Notes: a model not told the origin generated them from the sequence alone. A stretch of 64,000 nt of DNA from Spirochaetia bacterium (GCA_965262935.1 OZ253572.1:4420042-4484041), one strand, 5' to 3'; shown: positions 3,647-28,983, numbered from the stretch's first letter. Numbers and translations: made by a program.

Positions 3647-5776
3647 ATGATAAGCGTGACTTGCAGACGACCGTTCAGCGAGCTGGGCGATCAGCAGCTC
3701 CTCGATCAGACCAGGCGTCTGGCCGCCAATCAGCGCTGCATCGAAGTGCACATCCTGGACCATCTCGACGAGATAGACCGCCGCGGTCTTGCGCTGCGGC
3801 GCGGGTTCTCGAGCCTGTTCGACTACGCGGTGCGGGAGTTGCGCTTCACCGACGCGTCCGCGCAGCGGCGCATCCAGACGATGCGGCTGTGCCGGAGGCA
3901 TGGGTGGGTGCGGGCCAGCCTGCAGAGCGGAGAGTTGAGTATGACCTCGGCGGCGCAGTTGGAAACCACCTTTGCCGGTGCCGAGCGGGCCGAGCGCCAG
4001 AGCCGTACCGGGCGCCGGAACGTCGGTCAGGGTCGCTGCGACGATCAGGACCACGATTCCGCTGGCCGAACCAGGCAGCTTGGGCTGCCGGCAGCGCCGA
4101 GCGAAGCGGGTGAGCGAGGGGAGCGCGGGCCCCGATCGGCGCCGGAGCTTGCACCGCCGGCCGAGCAGTGCGCCGGTGATGCGACGGCGGTGAACACGCG
4201 CGTGGCGCCGGTGGCGAGCCACGCTGTTGCGCAGGACTGCGGCGCCGGGCATGCCGGCGCGCTACTGCCGCGGCCGAAATTGAGCGGGAACGCCTCGCTG
4301 TTTCCGGTGCCCTCCTGCGCTCCCGATCCCGATCCCGTTCCCGTTTCCGCCGCGCCGTCATCGGACGAAGGCCATGCTCCACAACTTCTGCCGCCGACGC
4401 ATCTCCCGGCGCTGGCGTCGGCGCCAGCGCCCGTGCCCGCGCCCTTTCTGCCGGTCGCGGCGCCATCGGAGTCGCTGCGGGCCGCTTCGCGCGCGCCGGA
4501 ATCGTCCCAGGATGATCCGTTTGCGCAGCTGTCGCCCGGCCCGGTGTCGGTGGCTCCGCTACTGCACCCGCAACGCCAGCGCGAGCTGATCGAGCAGGCC
4601 GCCGGCATGAGCACCCGCCAGGTCGCCGACCTGCTGGCTGCCGCCGGTCCCGAGGTGGTGCCACCGCGCGACACGCTGCGCGCCGTGGCGCCCGACCGCT
4701 ACACCTTGAAGGTGACCATCGACCAGGAGTGCGAACAGGGACTGCGCCGGCTGAAGGATCTCATGTCGCACCTCGACCCGCGCATGTCGTGGGGCGACCT
4801 GGTGGCGCGCATGGTGCGCGAGGCGGTGGCGTGGCACGACTCGCGCGGCGGCGGTAACGGGCACAGGCGGCGGCGAAGCGCGGGCAGCGCGGGCGCATCA
4901 CCGCGGCGGGCGCCGAACCGGACACATGCCGCCGCGGCGCCGGCGGCCCCGGCTCGGCTCGGAGGCGGCGATACTCCGGCGCCGCGGGGTGACACCGCCG
5001 CTGGCGAAAGGCAGAACCCGATCGTGATGTCGGCCAACGCTGCTGCGGCGCCGCAGTCAGCACCCGCTGCGCTGGTAAATGGCGCCCGCGTAGGTGGTGT
5101 TCCAGCGGCTGCGCCCGACGCCGCTGCTGCGCCGCAGTCAGCGCGCGCCGCACTGTCAGATGGCGCCCGCGCAGGTGGTGTTCCATCGGGCGCGCCCGAC
5201 GCTGCTGCGGCGCCGCAGTGCGCGGGCGGCGCCTCGGCGGATGGCTCGCATGCGGGCGCCGGGGTGCCGGTTTCTCCGGTCGCTACTCCGGCGCCGGAGC
5301 CGGTACTCGGCGTGTTCCCTGACGGCGAACTGCCCGGCGCATCCGGGGCAGCGGGCGGCGCCTCGGCGGATGGTTCCCATGCGGGCGCCGGGGTGCCGGT
5401 CTCGCCGGTCGCCACTCCGGCGCCGGAGCGGGTACTCGGCGTGTCCCCTGACAGCGGACCGAGTGGCGCCTCAGCCGGAGCAGCGGCGCACACGACACGC
5501 GAATCTGTCCACAGCTCCCACCAATCCCCGCCACGGCGCCACATTCCTGCGGCGGTCCGGCGCCACGTTTGGCAACGCGACGGAGGACGCTGCTGTTATC
5601 GTGATCCGCTCACCGGGCGCCGCTGCACCTCTTCCCATCTGCTGCAGATCGACCACCTGCTGCCGGTCGCCCAGGGCGGTGGTCCGGAGCCGTCCAATCT
5701 CAAGTTATCGTGCTTTGCTCATCACCGCCTGCGCCACGGCCACGGACCGGCTCCGGCTCCGGAGCCCCAGATGTAG
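3647..5776 (+). CDS. DUF222-like / HNH endonuclease protein (REP13E12-type), copy 1
   Basis: ORF 3482-5776. The start is set at ATG 3647, 7 nt after TATAAT 3635-3640. The C-terminus WQRDGGRCCY...SSHLLQIDHLLPVAQGGGPEPSNLKLSCFAHHRLRH is an HNH motif. The N-terminus (LDHLDEIDRRGLALRRGFSSLFDY) resembles the N-terminal domain of this family. Confidence 0.8.
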   Translation: MISVTCRRPFSELGDQQLLDQTRRLAANQRCIEVHILDHLDEIDRRGLALRRGFSSLFDYAVRELRFTDASAQRRIQTMRLCRRHGWVRASLQSGELSMTSAAQLETTFAGAERAERQSRTGRRNVGQGRCDDQDHDSAGRTRQLGLPAAPSEAGERGERGPRSAPELAPPAEQCAGDATAVNTRVAPVASHAVAQDCGAGHAGALLPRPKLSGNASLFPVPSCAPDPDPVPVSAAPSSDEGHAPQLLPPTHLPALASAPAPVPAPFLPVAAPSESLRAASRAPESSQDDPFAQLSPGPVSVAPLLHPQRQRELIEQAAGMSTRQVADLLAAAGPEVVPPRDTLRAVAPDRYTLKVTIDQECEQGLRRLKDLMSHLDPRMSWGDLVARMVREAVAWHDSRGGGNGHRRRRSAGSAGASPRRAPNRTHAAAAPAAPARLGGGDTPAPRGDTAAGERQNPIVMSANAAAAPQSAPAALVNGARVGGVPAAAPDAAAAPQSARAALSDGARAGGVPSGAPDAAAAPQCAGGASADGSHAGAGVPVSPVATPAPEPVLGVFPDGELPGASGAAGGASADGSHAGAGVPVSPVATPAPERVLGVSPDSGPSGASAGAAAHTTRESVHSSHQSPPRRHIPAAVRRHVWQRDGGRCCYRDPLTGRRCTSSHLLQIDHLLPVAQGGGPEPSNLKLSCFAHHRLRHGHGPAPAPEPQM
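5036..5220 (+). repeat. in-frame 81-bp tandem repeat (~2.3 copies) inside HNH gene
   Basis: The gctgctgcggcgccgcagtca... unit recurs at ~5036, ~5117 and ~5198. It encodes AAAPQSA.AAL..GAR.GGVP..APD. Confidence 0.8.
5225..5482 (+). repeat. in-frame 129-bp tandem repeat (2 copies) inside HNH gene
   Basis: The ggcggcgcctcggcggatgg... unit starts at 5225 and again at 5354. It encodes GGASADGSHAGAGVPVSPVATPAPE.VLGV.PD twice. Confidence 0.85.
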
Positions 5777-24422: not shown

Positions 24423-24575
24423 CCCCAGTACCCGTTTCGAGGCCTGCTCGGCGTTCACTCGCGTTGCGGCCTGCGTGCTCGCTAAAAATATTGCGTTGCG
24501 CGCCCAAGGGCGGGGTGAGGGAGTACCGGTTGCGGTGAGGATGGCGTAGGCGGAGAAGGGAACGGGGCATAAAGT

Positions 24576-24616
24576 GTGAAGCCCGCAGCGTGAGAGCTGC
24601 GGGCTTCACTTATTTA
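24576..24616 (+). terminator. strong hairpin followed by a T-rich tract (intrinsic-terminator-like)
   Basis: GTGAAGCCCGCAGC-gtgaga-GCTGCGGGCTTCAC is a perfect 14-bp stem, followed by TTATTTA. It lies ~85 nt inside the left transposon end, and no intact upstream gene needs it. Confidence 0.4.
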
Positions 24617-24667
24617 CAGCCTGGCCGGCGGAGACAACCGCCAGCCGAGGCACAGGAGAGGCAGCGA

Positions 24668-25541
24668 GTGTTCCCAGGCGCAACCGAGGCACACGCGCTC
24701 CCGCTCGCGACGACGAACTACGAGGCGGATGAGGACGGAACCCTACACGCCGTGCTGCCGTCACGTTGCGTCTACGCCACGGGGGAGCAGACGTGCGCCA
24801 TGTTCGTCGATCACTACCGAAAGCGCAAGACCGGGCCGTGCTACCCGGTGGCGGTGGTGGGGTGCCGTGTGCATGGGATGCCGTGTGCATGGGAAGCGGC
24901 GCTACACGCTGTATCCAGCCGGGCACTATCCGTACGGACGGGTGGCGGTAGTGCCGTACAGCGCAAGCGGAGAACTGTTGTGGGAAGCTGACAGTGGCGG
25001 GCCGGCGTGGCAGGCGACGCTGTTCGGGGCGGCGCAGGATGCCGCGCAAGGGCAGATGTGGCGGTCCGAGCAGAACTGGTGGCAACGCTGGGATGCGCGT
25101 CGGCGGCGAACCCAAGGACGGCGGTTGGAGATGGCCGGACGGCTGACCGGGGTCAGTGGGGGATTGAAGGAGCGGGAGCGAGAGCAGATCGCGACGCGGT
25201 TGGGAGTGGCGACCATGACCGTGCTGTCGGGCGCGCACCGCTGGGGGCGCAGTTGGCAGAGCCGCGGGGCAGCGATCGTGGCGGTGCTGGTGGCGCTGGC
25301 CTGCAGCGCGACGCTGGGGGACCGCATGGGTGCCGCTGGTGCGGTCAGCGATCTGTGGGGGCCGCCGCGTCCGCGGCTGGTGGCGCGCTGGGAGCAGGCC
25401 GGCAAGAGCTGGCTGGTGGCCGCGAGCGGCGGTTCCGAAGCGCGGGAACAGGGCGCTGCCGGCAGCCATCGGGGACGGGCACCGCCGGCCACGAAAGCGC
25501 CCGTTCGAACCGTCTCGGGCAGCGCTACGGTAGGCTCATGA
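24668..25541 (+). pseudogene. transposon-associated Cys-rich hypothetical gene, frameshifted by a 16-bp tandem duplication
   Basis: ORFs 24590-24991 and 24729-25541 join if one copy of TGCCGTGTGCATGGGA (24863-24878 and 24879-24894) is removed. The stop overlaps the transposase ATG (ATGA at 25538-25541). The start is uncertain. Confidence 0.45.
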
Positions 25542-26947
25542 ATGATTCATCGCGTCCCCCGTTACCGGTCTCGGCTACCGCGCTGCTGCGCTACTCGGTG
25601 GTCGCCGAGGTGGAGGCCCTGGTGCTGCGCGGGTGGCCCGCGGGAGCTGCGGTACGCCACGTTGCCGGCGCCGACCGTGTCGACCTGGACGGTCGCCTGG
25701 TGCGCATCAGCGTGCGTACCCTGCAACGCTGGCGCGCGGCCTGGGCGAGCGGCAAGCTCGCCGCCCTGGAGCCGCGGCAGCGCACCCGCACCACGACCTC
25801 ACAGGCACTGAGCGTAGAGCTGGTCGCCTTCCTGCGCACCGAGAAGCGGTGTGATCCGCGCGCCTCGGCGCCGGAACTGGTGCGCCGCGCACGCGAACGC
25901 GGCATCGTCCCGGTCGACCAGAAGATCGATCGCACCAGCGTGTGGCGCGCGTGCCGGCGGATGGGCCTGCCGACGCGGCAGCGACCGCACAAGCGTGAGG
26001 GCGACACGCGGCGCTGGCAGTATGCCGAGCGCATGCAGTGCGTGCTTGCCGACGGCAAGCATTTCCGCGCCGGCGCGGCGCGTCTGCGCCGAGTGGCGCT
26101 GTTCTTCATCGACGATGCCACGCGCTACGGCCTGCAGGTGCGGGTGGGCACCGCGGAGTCCAGCGAGCTGTTCCTGCGCGCCCTCTACCAGATGGTCATG
26201 CGGCACGGCTTGGCTGACTTGTTCTTCCTCGACAAAGGACCGGGCTTCAACTCCCACGATACCAAGGCCGTGGTCCAGGGCGGCCTGGGCGCGTTGCTGA
26301 TCCACGGCACCACCAGGTATCCGCAAGGCCACGGCGCCATCGAACGCTTCAACCGCACCGCTTACGATCAGGTGCTGCGTTCCCTCGATGGCGCCGCCGA
26401 CGTGGACCCCGCCTGCGATGCGCTCACGCTACGCCTGAACCACTTCCTGGAGCGCTACAACGACACCCCGCACGAGACCCTGGGCAAGGATATCACCCCG
26501 CGCCAGCGCTGGGAGCAAGGACGGGGTCTGCGCTTCCCCACCGACGACGCCGATCTGTACCGCCGCTTCGTGGTGCGCGCCATGCACAAGGTTTCCAACG
26601 ATCACGTCATCAAGGCCGACGGTCGGTTGTGGGAAGCGCCGCGCCGCAGCGCAGCCAGTTGGGTCGAGGTGGCGCGCCACGTGCTCGACGGTCGGCTGTG
26701 GGTTCAGCACCAGGGGCGCATGATCGAGCTCGCCGAGGTGGATCCGCAGGCCAACGCGACCGCGCCGCGCGGCTCCGGCAACACGCCGCAACCGACCGCC
26801 GGCAAGGACGGCGACGAACTGCCTGCCACCGCGGCCGGCATCGCCTACGCCAACGACCTGCGCCCGCTGGTCGACCCCGAGGGCGGCTATAGCGATCCGC
26901 ACGACGACCAACACGACGACCAACACGACCAGGAGCAGCACCCATGA
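25538..26947 (+). CDS. DDE (rve-type) transposase, Mu/Tn552/TniA-like
   Basis: ORF 25007-26947, start set at ATG 25538 (MNDSSRPP). N-terminal HTH region. DDE core ...VLADGKHF..., FFIDDATRY, FLDKGPGFNSHD and YPQGHGAIERFNRT. Confidence 0.85.
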   Translation: MNDSSRPPLPVSATALLRYSVVAEVEALVLRGWPAGAAVRHVAGADRVDLDGRLVRISVRTLQRWRAAWASGKLAALEPRQRTRTTTSQALSVELVAFLRTEKRCDPRASAPELVRRARERGIVPVDQKIDRTSVWRACRRMGLPTRQRPHKREGDTRRWQYAERMQCVLADGKHFRAGAARLRRVALFFIDDATRYGLQVRVGTAESSELFLRALYQMVMRHGLADLFFLDKGPGFNSHDTKAVVQGGLGALLIHGTTRYPQGHGAIERFNRTAYDQVLRSLDGAADVDPACDALTLRLNHFLERYNDTPHETLGKDITPRQRWEQGRGLRFPTDDADLYRRFVVRAMHKVSNDHVIKADGRLWEAPRRSAASWVEVARHVLDGRLWVQHQGRMIELAEVDPQANATAPRGSGNTPQPTAGKDGDELPATAAGIAYANDLRPLVDPEGGYSDPHDDQHDDQHDQEQHP

Positions 26948-27747
26948 GCCACGACCTCAGCCCCCTGGGCTTTCGCAAGACCCCCTTTACCCGCGAGTTG
27001 ACCGTGCGCGAGCGCTTCCCGCTCGATCCGCAGGCACAGGTCGCCGCCGCGCTCACCGAGGCGGTGCAGGAGCGCATGAGCGCCGCCCTCATCGCTCCCG
27101 CCGGCACCGGCAAGACCGTCGCCTTGCGCATGCTCGTCGCCGCTCTGCCGGAAACACGCTTCCAGGTCCATTACGTCAAGGTGACCGGCCTCTCCAAGCG
27201 TGACCTGTGCAAGGAAATCGCCGTCGCCTGCGGCCTCTCGCCCACCGGCATCTATCCCGCTCTGGTGCGCAAGCTGCAGGACGCTTTCGCACATACCACC
27301 AGCGACGGTATGCGGCCGGTCATCCTGCTCGACGAAGCCCATGACCTGCGCCCCGAATCGTTGGCCATGTTGAGGGTCCTCACCAACTTCGAAATGGACA
27401 GTCGCCTCGTCGTGTCCCTCGTGCTCGCCGGCCAGCCACACCTGAGACTGCTCCTCCGGCACCCCGAACAAGCCGCCATCGCGCACCGCCTGGCGCATTA
27501 CGCCGAGTTGCGCCTGCTGTCTCGTGATGAGACCCGCGCCTACCTCGAACACCGCTGCACCCTCGCCGGCGCTCGCACCAATCCCTTCGACGGCGACGCT
27601 CAGGAAACCATCTTCGAAATGAGCCGCGGCAACCTGCGCGCTATCGACCGCTTGGCCTTGGCGGCCCTGCACCTCGCCGCCAAGTCTTCCCACACCACCG
27701 TCAGTTCCGGCGACGTGATCGCCGCTCGCAAGTCGCTGTGGCCATGA
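26944..27747 (+). CDS. AAA ATPase transposition helper (TniB/MuB/ExeA-like)
   Basis: The ATG overlaps the transposase stop. Walker A APAGTGKTV, Walker B VILLDEAHDL, plus LVLAGQPHL and SRGNLRAIDRL. Confidence 0.8.
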   Translation: MSHDLSPLGFRKTPFTRELTVRERFPLDPQAQVAAALTEAVQERMSAALIAPAGTGKTVALRMLVAALPETRFQVHYVKVTGLSKRDLCKEIAVACGLSPTGIYPALVRKLQDAFAHTTSDGMRPVILLDEAHDLRPESLAMLRVLTNFEMDSRLVVSLVLAGQPHLRLLLRHPEQAAIAHRLAHYAELRLLSRDETRAYLEHRCTLAGARTNPFDGDAQETIFEMSRGNLRAIDRLALAALHLAAKSSHTTVSSGDVIAARKSLWP

Positions 27748-28679
27748 CCAATCCGCTGCCCACCGTTCCCGTCCATGCCATCGATCCCCAACCCGACGCT
27801 CCCCAGTGGTTGGTGCGCGACCTCTGGACCACCGCCGCCGTCGGGGTTGTCGGCGGCAGCCCCAAGGTTGGCAAATCGTGGTTTGGCCTCGATCTCGCCG
27901 TCTCGGTCGCGTCCGGCACCCCCGCCCTCGGGCGCTTCCCGGTCGACGCCACCGGACCCGCCCTGGTGTATCTCGCCGAGGATGCTCTGCCCCGCGTCCG
28001 TGACCGTGTCGCCCACTTGTGCCGCCACCGCGGCCTCGATCTGTCCCGCCTCGACCTGCAGGTCGTCACTGCCGACCGGTTACGCCTCGATACCGAACGC
28101 GACCAACTCGCTCTCGACCAGACCGTGCAACGGATCCGCCCGGCACTACTGCTGTTGGACCCCCTGGTCCGACTTCATTCTCTCGACGAAAACAGCGCTT
28201 CAGACATCTCTTCTCTGCTCGCCTTTCTGCGCGCCATCAACCGCCGCCATCAACTCGCTCTGGTCCTCGTCCACCACATGGCCAAGCGCTCCAGGCGCAA
28301 TCTCGGCCAGTCCCTGCGCGGCTCTTCCGATCTCCATGCCTGGACCGACTCCGCCTGCTATCTCGTGCGGCGCCCCGACGACCGTCTGCAACTCACCGTC
28401 GAGCACCGCTCCGCTCCCGCTCCCGACCCCCTCCTGCTGCGCCTCTCAGGCGGCGGCGACCAGCCTCTCTCGCTGCTCGTCGACAGCGCCGACGCCCCGC
28501 CGCCCCCGCTCGCCGAGGCGGTCCGCGCCGCTCTCCGCAGCGCCGGCCAGCCGCTCTCCAGGACCGTCCTGCGCCAACGCCTGCGCATCAACAACGCTCG
28601 TCTCGGGGTCGCCCTCCAAACTCTCCAACAACGCGGCCTCGCCGTCCGCAGCCCCAACGGCTGGCACCTGCCGTCATGA
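27738..28679 (+). CDS. AAA_25 / RecA-like (RepA-type) ATPase with C-terminal winged-helix
   Basis: Overlaps the preceding gene by 10 nt. Walker A GGSPKVGKSW, Walker B LLLLDPLVRLH, LVLVHHMAK. The C-terminal LSRTVLRQRLRINNARLGVALQTLQQRGLA is wHTH-like. Confidence 0.7.
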   Translation: MAMTNPLPTVPVHAIDPQPDAPQWLVRDLWTTAAVGVVGGSPKVGKSWFGLDLAVSVASGTPALGRFPVDATGPALVYLAEDALPRVRDRVAHLCRHRGLDLSRLDLQVVTADRLRLDTERDQLALDQTVQRIRPALLLLDPLVRLHSLDENSASDISSLLAFLRAINRRHQLALVLVHHMAKRSRRNLGQSLRGSSDLHAWTDSACYLVRRPDDRLQLTVEHRSAPAPDPLLLRLSGGGDQPLSLLVDSADAPPPPLAEAVRAALRSAGQPLSRTVLRQRLRINNARLGVALQTLQQRGLAVRSPNGWHLPS

Positions 28680-28717
28680 TCCGCACCCTCGGTTGCCTAC
28701 CCGCTCTCATCCGGCCG

Positions 28718-28768
28718 CCGTTCCGCTGTTCCACCGTTCCGCTCCAGGCACGCGCTCGGAACGGAACG
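28718..28768. repeat. GTTCC(G/A)C(T/C) x3 followed by inverted CGGAACGGAACG
   Basis: GTTCCGCT GTTCCACC GTTCCGCT (28720-28743), a 13-nt spacer, then CGGAACGGAACG (28757-28768). It starts ~40 nt after the AAA_25 stop and lies inside the right transposon arm. Confidence 0.8.
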
Positions 28769-28983
28769 ACCACCGCCACACTCCGCGTCATCTATCCTGC
28801 AACCAACCTCGGCCCGGGGCGCGCAACGCAACAGCTAAATCGCCCACTGGCGATCCTTCTTCATCGGAGTGCTTCAGTGTAATTCGTTACCTCCCTGCAC
28901 CGCTCCGACTGCTTCCGGCTGGAGCGACAGTTGCCGGGCGGGATTCGCACCCGCTGGGATACAGCGCCTTTCCACGGCGCACG

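Follow-up and report, generated by a model that had tools for sequence, protein, structure and literature searches.

Regulated DDE transposition has its reference systems in the Mu, Tn7 and Tn5053-type elements, on which the CRISPR-guided transposases are also based. To our knowledge, an ATPase of the RecA fold that resembles plasmid helicases and has a cognate DNA site has not been described in any element of these types. A candidate for such a combination was analysed here in a stretch of 64,000 nucleotides (nt) from a Spirochaetia bacterium (GCA_965262935.1 OZ253572.1:4420042-4484041), which is referred to as the window. The locus is probably a compact transposon of the Mu/Tn7 superfamily with four translationally coupled genes, in which a gene for an AAA_25 ATPase and the pentamer array behind it form an exchangeable cassette; the role of the AAA_25 protein is one that we infer. 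Comparison of the copies at sequence level supports the conclusion that positions 24489-28833 of the window are a bona fide multicopy transposon of this superfamily.

The element shares several properties with Tn5053/Tn402 (tniA-tniB-tniQ-tniR): it is compact, its DDE transposase is TnsB/MuA-like and precedes an AAA+ ATPase, it is associated with a 5-bp target duplication and it has no TnsA. In contrast to Tn5053/Tn402, TniQ, the TniR resolvase and a res site are absent, the Pfam TniB model is not matched, and a Cys3His protein upstream and a RepA-like AAA_25 protein with a pentamer array downstream are added. With the A/B module of phage Mu, the element has in common its PHROG matches (Mu-type transposase and transposition protein B), a match to MuB (8xvb), the 5-bp duplication and CA at the right end. 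However, it is only 4.3 kb long, is without phage genes and has two extra dedicated proteins, and Mu-transpos_C was found only in some family members. The Tn7-like elements and type V-K CRISPR-associated transposons (CAST) contain the best structural-sequence relatives of the core proteins (ShCAST TnsB, 8e-14; ShTnsC, 1e-4) and also share the 5-bp duplication, but the element is without TnsA, TniQ/TnsD or a CRISPR module, and no attachment-site specificity was seen. The features of the locus are as follows.

24481-24485, plus strand: left target duplication GCTAA, with three extra A behind it (24486-24488); the sequence at paralogous empty sites is GCTGAATCG
24489-28833, plus strand: whole element, 4345 bp; similarity among the five full copies in its own genome begins and ends exactly at these positions
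24489-24505, plus strand: left terminal inverted repeat, TATTGCGTTGCGCGCCC; its tip is TA, where the right end and marine relatives have TG
24576-24616, plus strand: terminator-like hairpin just inside the left end, a 14-bp stem followed by TTATTTA
24668-25541, plus strand: gene 1, Cys3-His protein, 285 amino acids (aa) when intact; frameshifted in the window by a 16-bp tandem duplication at 24863-24894
25538-26947, plus strand: gene 2, DDE transposase, 469 aa, with an N-terminal helix-turn-helix (HTH) and an RNase-H-like core (D172, D232, E269)
26944-27747, plus strand: gene 3, AAA_22 AAA+ ATPase, 267 aa, MuB/TnsC-like (AAA_22, 2.8e-21)
27738-28679, plus strand: gene 4, AAA_25 RecA-fold ATPase, 313 aa, with a C-terminal winged helix at about residues 258-310 (AAA_25, 1.8e-33)
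28720-28767, plus strand: pentamer array between the gene 4 stop and the right end; GTTCC at 28720, 28728 and 28736, a conserved spacer of 17 nt, GGAAC at 28758 and 28763
28817-28833, minus strand: right terminal inverted repeat, TGTTGCGTTGCGCGCCC on the minus strand, with the tip ...CA
28834-28838, plus strand: right target duplication GCTAA, assigned from the paralogous empty sites

Copies, genes and conserved gene order

The 7.0-Mb genome of origin was searched with the whole stretch, and five full-length copies and eight fragments were found. Among the full copies, identity to the window copy was 100% for itself, 95-96% for three others and 85% for one (L005). The similarity starts with TATT(G/A)CGTTGCG and stops with GCAACG(C/T)AA(C/T)A in all copies, and the ends of the element are TATTGCGTTGCGCGCCC...GGGCGCGCAACGCAACA. 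The terminal repeat measures 17 bp and differs at a single position between the left end (TATTGCG...) and the right end (TGTTGCG...), and the left repeat is conserved across phyla as T[AGC]TT[AG]CGTTGCRYGCCC. The right end reads ...AACA; at the left tip, this lineage has TA and marine relatives have TG. A first-pass annotation, made from the sequence alone, had proposed a 15-bp inverted repeat, and this was found exactly at 24491-24505 and 28817-28831. The five-copy comparison places the true tips at 24489 and 28833, each lying two bases outside the 15-bp repeat. The other copies that the annotation had suggested looking for exist, and the five full copies share the same boundaries.

The transposase and its AAA+ partner were compared with several databases. 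In Pfam, the window's gene 2 protein matched an HTH domain and, weakly, rve_3. Across the family, rve was matched by 12 of the 19 members and Mu-transpos_C_2 by three, while D172, D232 and E269 were conserved in the 19. The best match of the family profile in the PDB was ShCAST TnsB (8e-14), with retroviral integrases matching as well, and the PHROG match was phrog_310 (transposase, 4e-27). In NCBIfam, gene 2 fell below the IS481 cut-off (NF033577, 101 bits versus 224), and the element has three further genes. Assignment to IS21 was also not supported, as there was no IstB_IS21 match in Pfam and the IS21 transposase IS5376 reached only 0.09 in the PDB profile search. All family members have a conserved acidic tail, TAAxLAFxxDLxPLVDxDGGF, at the C-terminus of the transposase (about 26800-26944); by analogy with TnsB/MuA, it could be a hook that contacts the AAA+ partner.

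Gene 3 matched phrog_296 ('DNA transposition protein', 1.7e-28) and, in PADLOC, TnsC_V-K (3.8e-5). Its family profile matched MuB (8xvb, 8e-6) and ShTnsC (1e-4) over their full length. It had been described at first pass as a TniB/MuB-like ATPase; the MuB/TnsC-type matches agree with the second half of this name, but the Pfam TniB model was unmatched. The gene overlaps described at the same time were all present (ATGA at 25538, ATGA at 26944 and 10 nt at 27738-27747). In Pfam and NCBIfam, no gene matched a TnsA endonuclease, and the four genes fill the element; a recombinase domain, as in the serine resolvases TniR/BinL, was found by these databases in none of the four proteins. Also, no structural or lysis genes of a transposable phage were found within the 4345-bp, four-gene element.

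Gene 1, which from its conserved residues appears to encode a zinc-binding protein, is a fourth conserved component of the element. It starts with GTG at 24668 behind the ribosome-binding site AGGAGAGG. The Cys-rich gene of the first-pass annotation, an open reading frame (ORF) of 270 aa, turned out to be the downstream part of gene 1 read from a false start. An alignment of 34 homologues showed that C34, C43, C66 and H69 are invariant and that the C-terminal half is helical, and a full HMMER scan gave 850 representatives of the family at 50% identity clustering. Gene 1 had no match in Pfam, NCBIfam, PHROGs or PADLOC or among PDB sequences, and 35 diverse homologues yielded no Pfam domain, no TniQ match and no PDB profile relative. 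No PDB fold match was found for the AlphaFold2 (AF2) model, which was of mediocre quality (pLDDT 63.7). The upstream genes of the sister lineages described below were compared with gene 1, namely that of G020 (weak DUF6431), an alphaproteobacterial HTH-bearing ORF and the 264-aa ORF of a 3.5-kb element. Homology was rejected (hhalign E = 0.13-0.43), and the likeness is positional only. A 777-aa ORF in L005 that joins gene 1 to the transposase was considered as programmed frameshifting or an ancestral fusion and was also rejected, since it is due to a 1-nt insertion private to L005. Downstream of the insertion, the frame reads as low-complexity junk, and gene 1 is kept separate and conserved in its own frame in relatives of 71-85% identity, in G002 and G018 and in distant relatives.

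The four genes were found in the same order in all close relatives: four copies in a genome of the same genus, one in a genome of the same family and one disrupted copy. The same order was seen in marine and sediment metagenome contigs of 4.3-5.9 kb and in about 20 loci of metagenome-assembled genomes labelled as Nitrospiraceae, Gemmatimonadales, Longimicrobiales, Dehalococcoidia, Anaerolineales, Rhodothermales, Actinomycetes, Eisenbacteria and others. Even gene 1 homologues of only 30% identity head this order, with one contig holding all four genes and the other ending inside the third. The AAA_25 gene was present in every related element with enough sequence and was never missing from close relatives. 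The conserved gene order indicates that the AAA_25 gene belongs to the element itself, as an integral and conserved component. It had been taken for a component and not a neighbour at first pass, as part of a four-gene transposon of the Mu/Tn7 type, and the multiple copies, shared ends and conserved order support that view. The further suggestion that it stands in place of TniQ holds only positionally, and neither accessory protein was related to TniQ by search.

The family is widespread across many phyla and apparently undescribed. No published description of such an element was found in the literature searched, the coverage of which was incomplete, and the database names of the relatives' proteins are only 'AAA family ATPase' or 'hypothetical protein'. 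The family explains many orphan metagenome contigs of about 4.3 kb that consist of proteins with these two names. Whichever reading of the AAA_25 protein holds, two uncharacterised protein families are added to the transposition toolkit.

The AAA_25 gene and its pentamer array

The only PDB sequence match of gene 4 was the RSF1010 RepA helicase (1g8y, 4e-5). Walker A (GxPKxxKS), Walker B (LLLLDP), DEN, HHxxK and GQxLRGS motifs were invariant in 30 sequences. Walker A and B and an HHxSK motif are shared with RepA, and the two structures gave TM-scores of 0.54 and 0.67, the latter normalised to the length of RepA. The proteins differ in that RepA has no winged helix and its origin is recognised by RepC, whereas gene 4 has a DNA-binding domain of its own and lies in a transposon. 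The AF2 model of gene 4 showed a RecA core and a C-terminal winged helix of the order helix-helix-helix-strand-strand. Its fold matches were KaiC, DnaB, RadA/Rad51 and RepA, and the PHROG matches of gene 4 were to primase-helicase and DnaB-like families. The ratio of nonsynonymous to synonymous substitution rates (dN/dS) against three diverged copies was 0.46-0.50 for gene 1, 0.31-0.37 for the transposase and 0.19-0.31 for the AAA_22 gene, and was lowest for the AAA_25 gene (0.17-0.22).

The AAA_25 gene is always followed by an array of pentamers, two of them direct and two inverted. Across phyla, the right arm of the element is built in the same way: GTTCC occurs two or three times and is followed by a conserved spacer and by GGAAC twice, and about 50 bp then lead up to the terminal repeat. 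The arms of the array are unequal in their internal spacing and, therefore, do not make a clean hairpin; repeated protein-binding half-sites fit better. The origins of SV40 large T and papillomavirus E1 offer a functional analogy only, with four pentanucleotide half-sites placed as inverted pairs around a central spacer and bound by the DNA-binding domain that a ring ATPase carries. The proteins belong to unrelated superfamilies (superfamily 3 AAA+ versus RecA fold), and the element is likened to these origins by site layout only. Genome-wide, the pattern GTTCC-N14-20-GGAACGGAAC was found nine times versus 0.11 expected, and the right ends of this element account for seven of these. GTTCC-N17-GGAACGGAAC was also seen at C1:5036311-5036342 and 5056081-5056112, with a different spacer and no AAA_25 gene nearby.

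Next to these observations stands a second transposon lineage, found in a genome of the same family (G020). Its transposase and AAA_22 proteins are only 29-33% identical to those of the window element, its ends are different (TGTCAGYGCCCGCGATCTGGT), it has its own 5-bp duplications (CCATG, GCAGG and CGTGT) and it carries a different upstream gene with a CxxC motif. Its AAA_25 protein, however, is 76-77% identical. The DNA similarity between the window and G020 runs from 18 nt inside the AAA_25 gene (27756) to 28768, one base past the last GGAAC, and the DNA similarity of the G020 cassette is as high as 82% when compared with the G018 copy. Since the similarity is confined to the AAA_25 gene and the array, the two were exchanged as one cassette.

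The half-sites were then compared among AAA_25 clades. About 30 loci with an AAA_25 protein of at least 59% identity have GTTCC two or three times, 22 nt, and GGAAC twice. The clade at 43-46% identity, mostly from Alphaproteobacteria, has CTTCC twice, 25 nt, and GGAAG twice. A third lineage is 4.28 kb long and is represented in the genome of origin by three copies (98.8-99.4% identical; C1 near 3871k, 4008k and 6917k). Its four genes specify a protein that contains an HTH and Cys residues, a DDE transposase, an AAA_22 protein and an AAA_25 protein 44.7% identical to that of the window, and its half-sites are GTTTCCC (twice) and GGGAAAC (two or three times). The half-site sequence tracks the AAA_25 clade, and the 2 + 2 layout is kept throughout; on these comparisons the array belongs to the AAA_25 protein and not to the transposase. 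The GTTCC repeats had been put forward at first pass as transposase-binding sites, an assignment replaced here because co-transfer and co-variation tie the array to AAA_25. The exchange of the cassette between lineages amounts to a natural 'swap experiment' that, together with the co-variation of the half-sites, supports the pairing of ATPase and array.

Movement of the cassette as a unit, and the existence of sister elements that are without it, would also be expected of selfish or passenger cargo, such as a defence gene or what is left of a plasmid replication module, with no role in transposition. We consider this quite improbable. The AAA_25 gene keeps a constant position, is translationally coupled to the AAA_22 gene and is found in at least three lineages over a range of 43-100% identity, and the other three genes all have a higher dN/dS. 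No other cargo was ever found in these elements of 4.2-4.8 kb. In addition, gene 4 had no PADLOC match, and in plasmid records AAA_25 was not matched at all and the transposase only three times, weakly.

Possible role of the AAA_25 protein

By analogy with the described systems, the TnsB/MuA-like transposase would nick the 3' ends of the element and join them to target DNA held by the MuB/TnsC-like ATPase. Since the element lacks both a TnsA-like 5' nuclease and a resolvase, the strand-transfer product probably needs replication or repair, as in Mu. The AAA_25 protein would bind the pentamer array through its winged helix and assemble there as an ATP-driven ring, and the zinc protein encoded by gene 1 may serve as an accessory factor for DNA binding or target choice. 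Our preferred but tentative reading is that the AAA_25 protein, acting as a helicase, would open the right end and thereby let replication pass through the element. In its fuller form, which is likewise possible and not more than tentative, the element would bring its own replication starter: a RepA-like ring would assemble at the array after strand transfer and unwind into the element. If so, replicative transposition would be independent of the restart primosome of the host, and the spread across more than a dozen phyla could be explained. The helicase and its 'origin' would then be a module exchangeable among Mu-like transposons. The pairing of ATPase and array raises a question for the bench, namely whether a bacterial cut-or-copy transposon loads its own helicase.

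Another explanation, which we regard as rather doubtful, is that the AAA_25 protein is not a helicase but an ATPase that binds DNA site-specifically and serves as a mark of the right end; like a switch or clamp protein, it would regulate transpososome assembly, end choice, transposition immunity or expression. The presence of the site at one end only, with its sequence conserved including the spacer, would suit such a protein, as would the winged helix. The fold is ambiguous in this respect, as the best matches include the non-helicases KaiC and RadA/Rad51, but the only structural relative at sequence level is the replicative helicase RepA, and the PHROG matches are to primase-helicase and DnaB-like families. 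The RepA motifs, including HHxxK and GQxLRGS, are invariant, and an end-marking regulator would not obviously need the strongest purifying selection of the four genes. On the other side, elements without an AAA_25 gene transpose well.

One of these is a 3.5-kb sister element with six copies in the genome of origin, 99.97-100% identical (including C1:1437270-1440797, locus L035 3771-7298). Its ends are TGTTGTATCCCA... and its duplication is CACGC. It carries the 264-aa Cys-rich ORF and genes for a DDE transposase of 30% identity and an AAA_22 protein, but lacks an AAA_25 gene. From the near-identity of its copies, it looks recently active. Tn6049 of Cupriavidus metallidurans is a small, multicopy element with a transposase and a general-secretion-like ATPase, 'gspA', for which an AAA_25 protein was not reported (PMC2864759). 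Tn6049 may be of the simpler 3.5-kb kind, with the 'gspA' ATPase being of the AAA_22 type; the two are likened by description only, and this is offered as a lead.

Several observations weigh against a Mu-type transposon that is served by its own helicase. The related elements that are most active in the genome of origin have a transposase and an AAA_22 protein but no AAA_25 gene, so the core machinery can in general work without it. Since the fold matches of gene 4 include KaiC and RadA-type proteins, the fold alone is no proof of a helicase, and the element encodes no primase or polymerase. Also, the left tip is TA instead of TG, frameshifts are present in most copies of the genome of origin, and two copies have 3-4 extra bases at the left junction where precise Mu-type joining predicts none.

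Target duplication and state of the copies

On either side, the hexamer GCTAAA is found beyond the ends of the element (24481-24486 and 28834-28839). The first-pass annotation had considered it consistent with a target duplication and had called it rare, but it was counted four times in the window versus 6.9 expected. GCTAAA is not rare enough for this and, thus, is by itself no evidence of a duplication. The flanks of the element (24423-24488 and 28834-28983) were found to be the two halves of a group II intron fragment. When joined, they match about ten uninterrupted paralogues in the same genome (87-92% identical) straight across the junction. At this point the paralogues read ...GTGCTCGCTGAATCGCCC..., i.e. 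GTGCTC-GCTGA-ATCGCCC, with GCTGA at the duplicated position. One of the intron paralogues matches Rfam RF02003 (group-II-D1D4-4) on the opposite strand. Since the uninterrupted paralogues read through the junction, the duplication of GCTAA(A) is real, and the search for an empty site that had been recommended with the hexamer has thus confirmed it through paralogous sites. The duplication typical of the family is 5 bp and not 6 bp, as clean 5-bp duplications (CGTGC, ACCGT, ACCGC and CCAGG) were found in two other complete genomes, G002 and G018. Four copies there have perfect duplications, and a fifth matches at four of five bases (ACCGT/ACCGG).

None of the five copies in the genome of origin has a clean 5-bp duplication of its own, several abut the edges of other repeats, and GCTAAA is not over-represented. 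These three facts would be compatible with a GCTAAA duplication that arose by chance, in an element without a fixed target duplication or in a copy placed by recombination. This is very improbable and already largely refuted by the intron paralogues with GCTGA at the duplicated position, by the duplications in G002 and G018 and by the sister lineage of G020, in which three of four copies have perfect 5-bp duplications. Rearrangement and nesting have blurred the duplication record in the genome of origin, where some flanks are themselves the edges of other repeats. The 5-bp matches CCGGC and CCAGC between different copies were considered as a sign of inter-copy recombination and found weak, because at least one of the flanks involved coincides with the border of another repeat. 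Target duplications in metagenome contigs were set aside, since the flanks were inconsistent and the assemblies are probably chimeric.

The left junction of the window copy has three extra A between GCTAA and the TATT tip, or two if GCTAAA is counted as the duplication. The left junction of L002 is likewise odd (CATGG plus CCGC). Off-register cleavage at the non-canonical TA tip may be one idea to account for the extra bases.

Gene 1 is broken in four of the five full copies and is intact (285 aa) only in L002. The exact 16-bp tandem duplication of the window copy was also found in L004, while L003 and L005 have 1-nt insertions, and L004 has a 5-bp insertion in the AAA_22 gene as well. In L002, L003 and L004, 16 bp between direct repeats of the array have been lost (columns 4262-4277 of the alignment of the copies), so that the left arm retains a single GTTCC of the three. 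None of the copies in this genome combines an intact gene 1 with a complete array. The window copy, which lies inside a group II intron fragment and has a frameshifted gene 1, is decaying and probably non-autonomous. The stem of the hairpin at 24576-24616 is kept only in copies labelled Spirochaetia and is absent from the marine and Anaerolineales relatives. From its place inside the left end, the hairpin may stop read-through from outside.

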